Source: Escherichia phage vB_EcoM_WFK
Sequence record: MK373775.1
DNA length: 64,000 nt
Reading direction: 5' to 3' (one strand)
The notes beneath the pieces were generated by a model. The model saw only the letters and a list, made by a program, of their open reading frames with translations. It was not told the origin of the DNA and ran no database searches. Below are positions 38,299-41,089 of the stretch, one piece after another. Both the position numbers and the translations under genes were made by a program. Within the stretch, counting starts at the first letter, position 1; the number at the start of each line of letters is the position of its first letter.

Positions 38299-38328
38299 AT
38301 TGTACCACAATCCTTGTGGTATGTAAAC
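38299..38328 (-). promoter_or_regulatory. T4-type early promoter (rnlA)
   Basis: GTTTAC, 18-nt spacer, TACAAT. Confidence 0.45.
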
Positions 38329-38738
38329 TACTTTTTCTTATGTTGGATATTCCAAGGCGGGTTGAACTTTTTGATAAAAAGTGGTTCTTCAAGGTCCATT
38401 GTTGCGATGGTCATTGAACCAAGTTCGTTGGTGACTGAAAGGTCAAAACATTGGCGGGCCCAGAATTCAACCTTTTTGCCTTGCATTAAGGCATCCAAAA
38501 TCATAAGTGATTTTCTTGAATCTGAAGTCTGGTCTTTTCGATTTATGGCTGTTCGATAATAGTTAATGCGTTTCTTTAAATTCTTGGTTTTACCAATATA
38601 CACGAGTTCGTCATCTATAGCAATAGCATATATGACATTTTTCTTATTAGGGACATCAACTGTTTTAATTGTTGCATCTTCTAATAGCTCCAATTCTGTA
38701 TATTTAATAAAGGAATATTCGGCGGCGATATCTTTCAT
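38328..38738 (-). CDS. denA: endonuclease II (GIY-YIG-like)
   Basis: 136 aa, same as T4 DenA; VYIGKT..KRINYY motif. Confidence 0.8.
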   Translation of the reverse strand: MKDIAAEYSFIKYTELELLEDATIKTVDVPNKKNVIYAIAIDDELVYIGKTKNLKKRINYYRTAINRKDQTSDSRKSLMILDALMQGKKVEFWARQCFDLSVTNELGSMTIATMDLEEPLFIKKFNPPWNIQHKKK

Positions 38739-38746
38739 AATAAAGT

Positions 38747-38760
38747 GGGACCGAAGTCCC
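38747..38760 (-). terminator. stem-loop between nrdB and denA
   Basis: GGGAC-cgaa-GTCCC. Confidence 0.45.
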
Positions 38761-38764
38761 GTCC

Positions 38765-39285
38765 TTAGAAATATTTTTTGTATGAATTGATTACATTTTG
38801 GTCTACATCATTATCAATTTGTGCGACAAGATAAGAACTGATTTCAACTTCCTGAGGAGCTGCTTGAACTAAATCAGAGTTCAGATATTCACGAATCCAA
38901 GGATACGGATGCTTGGTCGGAGCATCCGTAATTGGACATGGCAAACCACACTGTTTCATACGAGACACAGTCAAGTAATCAACAAAAGCACACATACTCT
39001 GCGTATTGATACCTGGACATGTACCATCTTTAAAGAGGTGTGCAGCCCATTCCTTCTCTTGACTATTTACTTCCATAAAAATGTCAACTGCTTCTTGTTC
39101 ACATTCTTTAGCAATTTGAACCCACTCATCACCGTCAGTACCAGATTGAAGTTGACGGATAATGTACTGAGTACCCTTGAGATGGAGTTGTTCGTCACGA
39201 GCAATGAACTTCATAATCTTTGCATTGCCTTCCATAATTTCCATATTCTTGTGGAAGTTAAAGGTACCGTTATGTTCGATTGAGC
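38765..39285 (-). CDS. nrdB: ribonucleotide reductase small subunit NrdB, exon 2 (5' boundary approximate)
   Basis: Frame continues upstream of first Met to ..SIEHNGTFNFHKNMEIMEGNAK; RDEQLH iron-ligand motif. Confidence 0.75.
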
Positions 39286-39403
39286 TCGCTAATTCTCAAC
39301 CCGTTCTCTTATGAACTGCTACATATTACTATGCAGACCAGACTATATCACAATCCCAGAGGGATTCTCCCCATTTCGAGTCGCTTGACCCTACGTCCGA
39401 AGA

Positions 39404-40213
39404 CTAGTCGTTGAACCTTGCTTTGCAATTGTCGCCGTGCCATCGTTTATATGTTGATGGTGATAAATCTTTCTTATCACAATATGGACAATTCAATTGA
39501 ATTCTATTTGGATTTAATTTACATCTGTCATTATGTTTTAGATAAAATCCAGGACCTTTACCAATGTGACCACAAAAATCACACGTGATTTCTTTTTGTG
39601 CAGGATGGGTCCCGTTCTTAACCATTTCTAATGTTTTTGCTGATGTTCTTTTCTTATGGTCTTCTGATAAGAAATGATGTGAACCGTCATTTACCCGTTT
39701 TGATTGAGTTTCTGACTGCATTTTACCACCGCAAAATACATGAGTACCTTCTTTTATAGCTGCAATATTGCGTTCTTTAACTTTTGCAATATGCTCAGCT
39801 TGTTGAAAATTATGTATACCTAATGCAACTCTATTTAAATTAGATTTACGCTGTATTTCACCGTCTAAAAGATGAAATGTACCATTTTCTATCTTAGATT
39901 TAATAGAGGCAATATTTTTAGCTCGTACTTCAGGGATATTAAAAATCTGGATTTCTCTAGATTTTGCGGCTTTAGAAGCTAATTCAGAAATTTCTTCAGG
40001 AGAATATTTCATTCTAAGCTTTATAGCATGACAAGCCTGGTAATCTTTTTGAGCTAAATGTATATCATAATGTTCCTGTATAGAAAGGCACATCAAATTA
40101 TCTAAATCATTATTTTCACGGTTACCGTCTTTATGATGGATTTCATATGTTCTTCCATCAGAATCTTTAGGTATAGGTCCGTTAGCATCTATCCAAATTT
40201 TTCTATAGTTCAA
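39404..40213 (-). CDS. intron-encoded HNH homing endonuclease (I-TevIII-like, full length)
   Basis: 269 aa; HNH motif EIHHKDGNRENN..N; C-terminal Cys-rich zinc motifs; apparent TTG start; late promoter upstream. Confidence 0.85.
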   Translation of the reverse strand: MNYRKIWIDANGPIPKDSDGRTYEIHHKDGNRENNDLDNLMCLSIQEHYDIHLAQKDYQACHAIKLRMKYSPEEISELASKAAKSREIQIFNIPEVRAKNIASIKSKIENGTFHLLDGEIQRKSNLNRVALGIHNFQQAEHIAKVKERNIAAIKEGTHVFCGGKMQSETQSKRVNDGSHHFLSEDHKKRTSAKTLEMVKNGTHPAQKEITCDFCGHIGKGPGFYLKHNDRCKLNPNRIQLNCPYCDKKDLSPSTYKRWHGDNCKARFND

Positions 40214-40240
40214 TTGTGCATCCTCTTAAAAGTATAATCA

Positions 40241-40248
40241 TATTTATA
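40241..40248 (-). promoter_or_regulatory. late promoter TATAAATA inside nrdB intron (endonuclease ORF)
   Basis: Reverse-complement TATAAATA ~28 nt upstream of ORF start. Confidence 0.5.
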
Positions 40249-40358
40249 TTATACTAATTAAAGGTGCAAGCAAAACCTTGGCTGCTAGTTTTCCTATAAA
40301 GGACTTTCCAGCAATTAAAGGAGTTTTCGATAAACGTTACCGTTTAAAGGCGCATTTT

Positions 40359-41034
40359 ACGCAAAAGATACATAAAAACGAATAGCTTCTAAGGCATTAA
40401 TAACGTGCAAACAGAGGTAAAGAGATTTCATTAGCTCACGCTTCCAATATGTCTCATGCTCAATAGCATCTTCAATAACGTCTTCGTCTGCATTAATTTC
40501 TTTTTGGTATTCGATATCGGCTTTAGCGTTTTCCCAATAACGAGTTTTAACCAGAACATCATCGTAATATTTACCTATTGATTCAGCTCGTTTCATGATT
40601 GCTTCGTCTAATACAATCTCATCAAATACCTTAGATGGGTCTGTATAAAGATTTCGCATAATATGAGTGTACGAACGAGAGTGAATAGTTTCACTGAATG
40701 TCCATGTTGCAACCCATGTATCTAATGAAGGGTCGGAAATCAGTGCCATAAGTACCGCAGATGGGGCCCTGCCTTGGATAGAATCTAATAATGATTGATA
40801 CTTAAGATTGTTTGTAAAGATGTCCTGTTGGAACTGAGGAAGCTTATTGAACTGCGCAGAGTCCAACATCAAGTTTACCTCTTCTGGGCGCCAGAAAAAT
40901 GACAATTGCTTTTCAATAAGTTCTTCAAAAACTTTATGTCGCTGAATATCATAACGTGCGAGGCCAAGACCAGAACCAAAGAACATTGGTTCATTCAAAA
41001 CATCGACTTGTTGTGTGTTAAAAACTGTACTCAT
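40359..41034 (-). CDS. nrdB: ribonucleotide reductase small subunit NrdB, exon 1
   Basis: ETIHSRSY and NALEAIRFYVSFA motifs of class Ia R2; stop immediately after exon end. Confidence 0.8.
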
Positions 41035-41089
41035 TATATTTTCTCACTTAGTTATTAACTCATCCATGAGTAAATTATAATCAAAAGTC

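Follow-up and report, generated by a model that had tools for sequence, protein, structure and literature searches.

The window, that is, the whole 64,000-nt stretch of Escherichia phage vB_EcoM_WFK DNA (MK373775.1) that was analysed, carries on its minus strand an nrdB gene interrupted by a 1091-nt group I intron of the IA type. Exon 1 (40359..41034, 676 nt) starts with the ATG at 41034 and ends in ...TTTGCGT, the intron (39268..40358) runs from AAAAUGCGCC to GAACAUAACG, and exon 2 (38765..39267, 503 nt including the stop) begins with GTACCTTTAAC. The P6 loop of the intron holds a 269-residue open reading frame for the endonuclease I-TevIII (39404..40213, minus strand), which begins at a TTG, the same start as annotated in phage RB3. 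The exon-1 frame covers the N-terminal 225 residues of NrdB, ending ...NALEAIRFYVSFA, and then meets a TAA stop (40359..40357); the ORF delimited by the gene caller, 40357..41034, reads two bases into the intron up to this stop.

Joined, the two exons make 1179 nt and encode, in frame, 392 residues. The predicted spliced NrdB reads ...FYVSFACTFNFHKNMEIMEGNAK, with a Cys at the junction (SFA-C-TFNFHK), and aligns with E. coli R2 (...FYVSFACSFAF...; E 6e-128) with the SFAC motif matched and no gap at the junction. When spliced in silico, the intron-bearing nrdB is collinear with the intron-less alleles of its nearest relatives. Alignment with RB3 and T4 gives an insert of 1091 nt, the length of the RB3 intron, which is homologous to the 598-nt T4 intron. 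Since 42 different removals of 598 nt keep the T4 nrdB frame open, the splice sites cannot be fixed from the frame alone; only 3 of these 42 solutions follow the rule of a 5′ U and a terminal intron G, and a single one yields the SFAC junction. The choice T/AAAATGCG...ACG/GTACC (slashes mark the splice sites) is the only one that combines the 5′ U, the terminal intron G and the conserved junction. The intron thus ends ...CAUAACG/GUACC, its terminal G (omega-G, 39268) being present in all 11 homologues examined, and the first base of exon 2 is 39267, where the sequence reads GTACCTTT....

A first-pass annotation of the window had placed the interruption of the NrdB frame after ...RFYVSFA, where the TAA at 40359..40357 is indeed found, and its upper boundary, 40358, coincides exactly with the base at which the intron begins. 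Its lower boundary, 39286, lies 18 nt off the true 3′ splice site at 39268, and the resumption of exon 2 that it proposed at 'SIEHNG' has to be given up: the frame is open across this segment, but those 18 nt are intron. The same annotation hesitated between a Ser and a Cys at the junction. The Ser alternative arose because the 3′ splice site was misplaced, and it falls; the Cys junction (SFAC) stands and also satisfies the rule on the 5′ U and the terminal G. The ligated junction in the nrdB mRNA would read ...UUUGCGU-GUACCUUU.

The window shares 100% identity with Escherichia phage vB_EcoM_WFL6982 (MK373774), a member of the genus Mosigvirus. The nearest phages by exon sequence, NicPhage, G53, AV110, ZQ3, mar005P1 and WFbE185 (98.2–98.7%), all have an uninterrupted nrdB. 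In NicPhage, G53, WFbE185 and JS09, the gene is a continuous 1179-nt frame from which the 1091 nt are precisely absent, and the NrdB proteins of NicPhage and G53 are 100% identical to the spliced product of the window, with 19 and 20 synonymous differences, respectively, at the nucleotide level.

The ORF divides the ribozyme into two segments, both on the minus strand. The 5′ segment (40266..40358) contains the internal guide sequence GCGC of P1 (40353..40350), P2 (40345..40332), the 5′ strand of P3 (40323..40318), P4 (40313..40308 with 40288..40283), P5 (40303..40292) and the 5′ strand of P6/P6a. The 3′ segment (39268..39426) starts with the 3′ strand of P6, followed by P7 (39409..39405 with 39345..39341), P7.1 (GUC-UUCG-GAC, 39404..39395), P7.2 (GGGUC-AAGC-GACUC, 39391..39378), the 3′ strand of P3 (39372..39367), P8 (39365..39353), P9 (39336..39319), P9.1 (39316..39303), P9.2 (39301..39278) and the terminal G at 39268. 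The last ~23 nt of the I-TevIII ORF, including its TAG stop, overlap the 3′ strand of P6, J6/7 and P7. The J6/7-P7 and J8/7-P7 elements, GUUCAACGACUA and GAUAUAGUC, align to the RF00028 consensus. Extra helices P7.1 and P7.2 between P7 and P3′ define subgroup IA, a definition reportedly due to Michel and Westhof in 1990; cmscan aligns the segment that holds them as inserted sequence separating P7 from P3′.

To count pairs, P1, P2, P3, P4, P5, P6, P7, P7.1, P7.2, P8, P9, P9.1 and P9.2 were written out on six distinct ORF-less ribozyme sequences (window/RB3, T4, AV109, F1, S16 and DCP80). The 64 proposed pairs give 383 cells, all of them standard, and P3, P4, P5, P6, P7 and P8 are 100% paired in the six sequences. 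In P1, the exon end ...GCGU faces the intron GCGC with the final exon U in a U.G wobble; its four pairs are standard in all six sequences and invariant, which is compatible with pairing rather than a proof of it. Compensatory double changes are found in seven pairs, two in P2, one in P5, one in P7.2 (U-A to C-G), one in P9 and two in P9.2, so that covariation supports only these five helices, P1, P3, P4, P6, P7 and P7.1 being invariant. Registers slid by 1–3 columns gave 33–43% paired cells and 0 compensatory changes, a control biased in favour of the proposed structure by its having been drawn from the window sequence. P6a was left out of the count, as it has two alternative registers, neither of which is helped by a G-to-A change at intron position 938. 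The minimum free energy fold of an artificial ORF-less construct, used as a guide only, recovers P1, P3, P4, P5, P7.1, P7.2, P8, P9, P9.1 and P9.2, misses P7, a pseudoknot, and replaces P2 by a long-range pairing.

A scan of the whole window against Rfam at the gathering threshold gave zero matches. At a relaxed threshold, RF00028 matched 39319..39559 with 34.0 bits (E 1.4e-6; gathering score 50), with P7, P3′, P8 and P9 aligned correctly and the 5′ half of the model forced into the ORF. Taken as a control, the T4 nrdB intron scored 35.7 bits in the same test, and a 309-nt, naturally ORF-less intron at the same nrdB site in DCP80 (Gaprivervirus) reached 74.1 bits over model positions 1–253. 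These two controls point to a limit of the model rather than of the sequence; the low score is most likely due to the 810-nt P6-loop ORF that separates the ribozyme halves. On the same grounds we rejected the null at the gathering threshold as evidence against an intron. The covariance-model search proposed in the first-pass annotation thus left the window itself below the threshold and its ORF-less homologue above it. The claim of a group I intron in nrdB, made there, is upheld by this homologue, by the core with its compensatory changes and by the precise absence of the insert from relatives. The T4 nrdB intron has been described as self-splicing.

The protein encoded in the P6 loop has an N-terminal HNH_3 domain (PF13392, residues 4–48, E 6e-13 in Pfam) and two C-terminal zinc-finger motifs of the form CX2CX12-13HX3C, at residues 211–231 and 242–263. 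An additional Pfam match to FlgM (residues 74–114, 26.2 bits for a cutoff of 25) is most likely a marginal similarity to the lysine- and serine-rich linker. The sequence is identical to RB3 I-TevIII at 268 of 269 residues, with Tyr23 replacing the Asp23 of RB3; six of the 810 nucleotides differ, five of them silently, and the start, the stop and the flanks are the same. RB3 I-TevIII cleaves the homing site and drives intron mobility (Robbins et al. 2007, PMC1865063). It acts as a dimer, and alanine substitutions have shown that His26, His27, Asn39 and His48 are needed for cleavage, and Cys211/Cys214 together with Cys242/Cys245 for zinc and DNA binding (PMC1865063). The enzyme cuts upstream of the insertion site and, when purified from RB3, was reported to be weak and labile. 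All eight of these residues are present in the protein of the window. Tyr23 is the common state: the proteins of FL31, PaulHMueller, G2469 and F1 are identical to that of the window, and Tyr23 is also found in Bp7 and in the diverged, ~87% identical copy of Salmonella phage S16. Among the eight full-length copies translated, Asp23 was directly seen only in RB3, and the truncation of the alignments at that same codon suggests that RB5 and RB9 may carry it as well.

This analysis bears out what had been noted from the ORF list, namely a 269-residue HNH endonuclease with C-terminal zinc motifs and a TTG start, which is shared with the RB3 annotation and lies behind a Shine-Dalgarno sequence. The same is true of its description as a full-length, potentially active homing endonuclease, given the near identity to RB3 I-TevIII with the required residues intact, and of the contrast drawn with a truncated copy in T4, which lacks a 491-nt block plus two single bases. 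The late-promoter-like motif recognized before the ORF is also real: TATAAATA lies at 40248..40241 (minus strand), upstream of I-TevIII, is of the T4 late type and is identical in RB3 and T4. The Shine-Dalgarno sequence AAGAGGA (40221..40227, minus strand), likewise identical in RB3 and T4, is paired with an upstream arm in a computed 52-nt hairpin (40217..40268, minus strand) of −14.7 kcal/mol (z −4.2), and none of 200 shuffled sequences is as stable. RNA starting at 40236, just past the promoter motif, is unstructured (−0.8 kcal/mol); transcripts begun at the late promoter do not contain the upstream arm of the hairpin. The TATAAATA motif itself falls within the hairpin, which in longer early or middle transcripts would hide the ribosome-binding site. 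Use of the late promoter is known for T4 (PMC2988022), T4 intron endonucleases are translated only from late transcripts, a hairpin model has been published and autorepression has been proposed. By analogy, late expression of I-TevIII is most likely in the phage of the window. A scan for sigma-70 promoters, with a tool that does not cover T4 late promoters, found fewer sites than in shuffled sequence.

The element is already known and common. The spliced nrdB matches 671 phage records, and the nrdB-type 3′ ribozyme is present at 90% identity or higher in about 176. The block absent from T4, and with it the full-length I-TevIII, is present in 84 phage records from at least four genera: Tequatrovirus (RB3, F1 and PaulHMueller), Mosigvirus (the phage of the window, G2469 and FL31), Dhakavirus (Bp7) and Gelderlandvirus (S16). 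In many records the protein is already named I-TevIII, 'intron-associated endonuclease 3' or 'homing endonuclease'. Three distinct ORF deletions were found among the records examined, each flanked by a short direct repeat. The T4 deletion removes 491 nt, corresponding to 39659..40149 (minus strand) and to I-TevIII codons ~23 to 185 with the HNH motif, between GAAGA(A/C)CATA repeats. In AV109, an in-frame deletion of 504 nt between AAGAACAT repeats eliminates the HNH domain and leaves 101 residues, and in DCP80, 785 nt, essentially the whole ORF, are missing between ACAATTG repeats. Homing endonuclease genes pass through a cycle of invasion, degeneration and loss, and the three deletions fit this expectation. 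No paper came up when the literature was searched for Mosigvirus combined with I-TevIII.

Comparison of the exons reveals a patch of donor-type sequence around the intron. Over the spliced nrdB, the window differs from RB3 at 243 of 1179 positions, and outside −75..+22 of the insertion site it is of the Mosigvirus type, with about one base in five differing from RB3. Within −59..+20, by contrast, it is identical to RB3 and T4 except at +17, where it matches neither, and this interval contains 14 of the synonymous differences from the intron-less relatives (14 of the 19 from NicPhage). The maximal RB3/T4-like stretch in the Mosigvirus background spans 39246..40433 (minus strand) and includes 59–75 nt of exon 1 and 20–22 nt of exon 2, at most 97 exon bases. 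It is skewed upstream, the side on which I-TevIII cuts. Judged from the exon alignments, this patch is the apparent co-conversion tract of a recent homing event and indicates that the intron probably entered the lineage recently, from a donor whose exon flanks were of the RB3/T4 type; the most likely route is homing initiated by I-TevIII in a mixed infection. The tract is shorter in AV109, also a Mosigvirus, and this suggests that the intron was gained separately in that phage. At position −2, the 11 intron-bearing alleles all have G and the 4 intron-less Mosigvirus alleles all have A, with Ala encoded in either case; an A there would produce an A.C mismatch beside the U.G wobble of P1. Compared with the RB3/T4 homing site, the intron-less target of Mosigviruses has other bases at −14, which is the cleavage position, at −8 and at −2, so that efficient I-TevIII cleavage of this target is an assumption.

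Three other explanations of the locus were considered. The interruption could be a frameshift or an insertion that inactivates nrdB, leaving a pseudogene with no spliced intron. The public record MK373774 is consistent with such a reading, as it gives nrdB as two CDS with a hypothetical ORF in the middle, and so are the zero Rfam matches at the gathering threshold. However, the 1091 nt are absent base for base from the nearest relatives and their removal restores a 100% identical protein; a group I core with compensatory changes is present in the insert, whose ORF-less homologue scores above the RF00028 threshold and whose ribozyme parts are identical to those of the RB3 intron, which is experimentally mobile (PMC1865063). 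A pseudogene can thus be given practically no credence, and the frameshift, raised at first pass as an alternative, is excluded by the precise absence of the insert from relatives. A further concern, that the ORF is intact in sequence but non-functional for homing, or retained now only as an autorepressor or a maturase-like protein, draws on D23Y, a non-conservative difference beside His26/His27 from the only biochemically tested allele, and on the autorepressor role proposed for I-TevIII. Against it, Tyr23 is common, being shared with the four phages that have the identical protein and with Bp7 and S16, all eight residues at which an alanine replacement abolished activity or binding are retained, and the fresh co-conversion tract argues for recent mobility; we regard a loss of homing function as very unlikely.

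A genuine intron could also have arrived, or have been maintained, without I-TevIII, through general recombination in mixed infection or through trans-homing driven by a free-standing endonuclease encoded nearby, such as MobE. The T4 nrdB intron depends on MobE for its spread, and MobE-dependent inheritance of this defunct intron is documented; short forms without a nuclease domain occur in Mosigviruses, AV109 for example, so spread without an active I-TevIII does take place. The difference of the Mosigvirus target at the −14 cleavage position is also in favour of this route, and a similar patch would result if co-infecting phages had simply undergone ordinary homologous recombination. The window, however, does not carry mobE: the gap between nrdA and nrdB is only 55 nt, at the place where RB3 and T4 have the gene. 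In T2, moreover, MobE-associated recombination maps near nrdB nucleotides 505–515, so that a MobE-driven tract would be far longer than the one seen. The donor-type sequence starts only 59–75 nt upstream of the insertion site (nrdB nucleotides 602–618 in the numbering of the window phage) and brackets the I-TevIII cut site, and the ORF is intact with only six nucleotide changes from RB3. An arrival independent of I-TevIII is, all in all, unlikely, though less so than a loss of homing function.

The anatomy of the locus, its identity to RB3, the intact functional residues, the covariation-supported structure, the precise absence from the sister phages and the tract converge on one explanation: it is almost certainly the nrdB group I intron of the RB3 type, its I-TevIII gene intact, residing in a Mosigvirus genome. 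The nrdB pre-mRNA would be made continuous by RNA self-splicing. Pairing of the GCGU at the end of exon 1 with the GCGC of the internal guide would give P1, with the U.G wobble at the splice site, a P3–P8 core together with P7 would make up the catalytic site and the intron would end in its G. Ligation would then restore the full 392-residue NrdB through ...SFA-C-TFNF..., and the ORF in the P6 loop would produce I-TevIII, whose N-terminal nuclease is of the HNH type and whose C-terminal domain, containing the two zinc fingers, serves in DNA binding and dimerization. Splicing, cleavage chemistry and expression timing are presumed for this phage by analogy with the experiments on RB3 and T4.

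The closest known system is the nrdB intron of phage RB3 with its I-TevIII, for which Eddy and Gold in 1991 are reportedly the source. The insertion site and the length of 1091 nt are the same, the ribozyme segments show 0 differences, and the TTG start, the late-promoter motif and the Shine-Dalgarno sequence are shared. The two differ in their surroundings: RB3 is a Tequatrovirus with an adjacent mobE, the window belongs to a Mosigvirus without mobE, and beyond flanks of ~60–75 nt upstream and ~20 nt downstream the exons of the window are of the Mosigvirus type and no longer those of RB3. The 598-nt intron of T4 has the same insertion site and splice junction and a similar Rfam behaviour (35.7 versus 34.0 bits), but outside the ORF body 6 substitutions and 2 single-base deletions separate its ribozyme from that of the window, and its ORF stops at codon 23, with the HNH motif gone, whereas the copy in the window is full length. 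The T4 td/I-TevI and nrdD/I-TevII introns are likewise phage group I introns in nucleotide-metabolism genes with a looped-out ORF, and they share with the window the late promoter and a hairpin that sequesters the ribosome-binding site. I-TevI and I-TevII follow the same design in cutting at some distance upstream of the insertion site and in the co-conversion of exon sequence; these enzymes, however, are GIY-YIG monomers, whereas I-TevIII belongs to the HNH type and works as a dimer. I-HmuI, from the DNA polymerase intron of SPO1, is also an HNH enzyme encoded by a phage group I intron, and it combines a modular nuclease with an extended DNA-binding region. Unlike I-HmuI, I-TevIII produces a double-strand break, as a dimer, and its DNA-binding modules are zinc fingers.

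The scientific picture changes little, as the element was described between 1991 and 2007 along with its enzyme, regulation and mobility, and the full-length form is present in 84 records; what the locus adds is a clean natural case of an intron that recently homed into a new genus. In practice, nrdB should be annotated as join(41034..40359, 39267..38765) on the minus strand, in place of the split gene and hypothetical I-TevIII of the public record. The Rfam group I model at its gathering threshold misses the intron of the window and the T4 reference intron alike, and covariance-model screens therefore undercount ORF-bearing phage introns. The phage of the window and its intron-less sisters form a natural before/after pair for I-TevIII homing, the length of co-conversion and the tolerance of the target. 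We advance, as a conjecture that is rather doubtful, that a very recent natural cross-genus transfer, in which the tract had to include −2 for the sake of P1, may be combined with a widespread Tyr23 form that is the natural one and possibly more active than the Asp23 laboratory allele of RB3, from which the report of a weak and labile enzyme comes. G2469 and WFbE185, although both belong to the species Mosigvirus mar005p1, differ in the presence of the intron.

The nrdB intron of the window encodes full-length I-TevIII (39404..40213, minus strand), a 269-residue HNH homing endonuclease that differs at a single position from the RB3 protein, the sole copy studied biochemically. RB3 I-TevIII carries an Asp at residue 23, three residues ahead of the catalytic His26, whereas seven other full-length copies from four genera, translated here, have a Tyr at this position (codon 23, 40145..40147 in the window). 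The weak and labile activity reported for I-TevIII may be due, in part, to an atypical RB3 allele. At residues 74–114, in the linker joining the HNH domain to the DNA-binding domain, Pfam gives a borderline hit to the anti-sigma-28 factor FlgM (26.2 bits; cutoff, 25). The hit is probably spurious, although I-TevIII has been proposed to act as an autorepressor.

Shorter forms of the intron occur naturally. In the Mosigviruses AV109, AV114, AV115, and AV116, the intron measures 592 nt (locus L009 of phage AV109, OR352939, 743..1334) and bears an in-frame 504-nt deletion, distinct from that of the T4 nrdB intron, leaving a 101-residue protein that keeps the zinc fingers and has lost the HNH motif; this protein might still be capable of DNA binding or dimerization. 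The Gaprivervirus DCP80 possesses a natural ORF-less intron of 309 nt (locus L015, PQ671644, 1428..1736), in which a deletion bounded by two ACAATTG repeats has taken out the I-TevIII ORF but spared the late-promoter motif and the Shine-Dalgarno sequence. The PQ671644 record contains neither a CDS for nrdB exon 1 nor an annotated intron. A DNA primase gene lies immediately upstream of this locus.

In phage PaulHMueller (MZ501098), classified as a Tequatrovirus, the nrdB exons flanking the intron are near-identical to the Mosigvirus-type sequence of the window, and this near-identity extends to the hypervariable segment upstream. Such an arrangement suggests that the nrdB region, and not merely its intron, has been exchanged between genera. 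In unrelated phages, the 3′ ribozyme segment (P3′-P8-P7′-P9), used as a query, gave 70–92% matches within genes for DNA polymerase, terminase, and NrdD, including the Yersinia phage Berlin DNA polymerase and genes of Staphylococcus, Bacillus AR9, and Vibrio phages. The matches presumably represent further group I introns whose core is closely related; many of them fall where no feature is annotated.

In the MK373774 record (134767..137036, corresponding to 38765..41034 of the window), nrdB is entered as two unrelated CDS, the second beginning at an internal ATG (MEIMEG...), I-TevIII is labeled a hypothetical protein, and neither intron nor join is annotated. The nrdA-nrdB gap is just 55 nt long (41035..41089) and is devoid of nrdB.1 and of mobE, a free-standing HNH endonuclease gene; both are missing from the window phage, whereas they occupy this spacer in T4 and RB3. 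Directly past the nrdB stop codon and ahead of denA (38328..38738), a GC-rich hairpin, GGGAC-TTCG-GTCCC (38747..38760), followed by a T-rich tail, forms a terminator-like element, and it carries a terminator annotation in related records.
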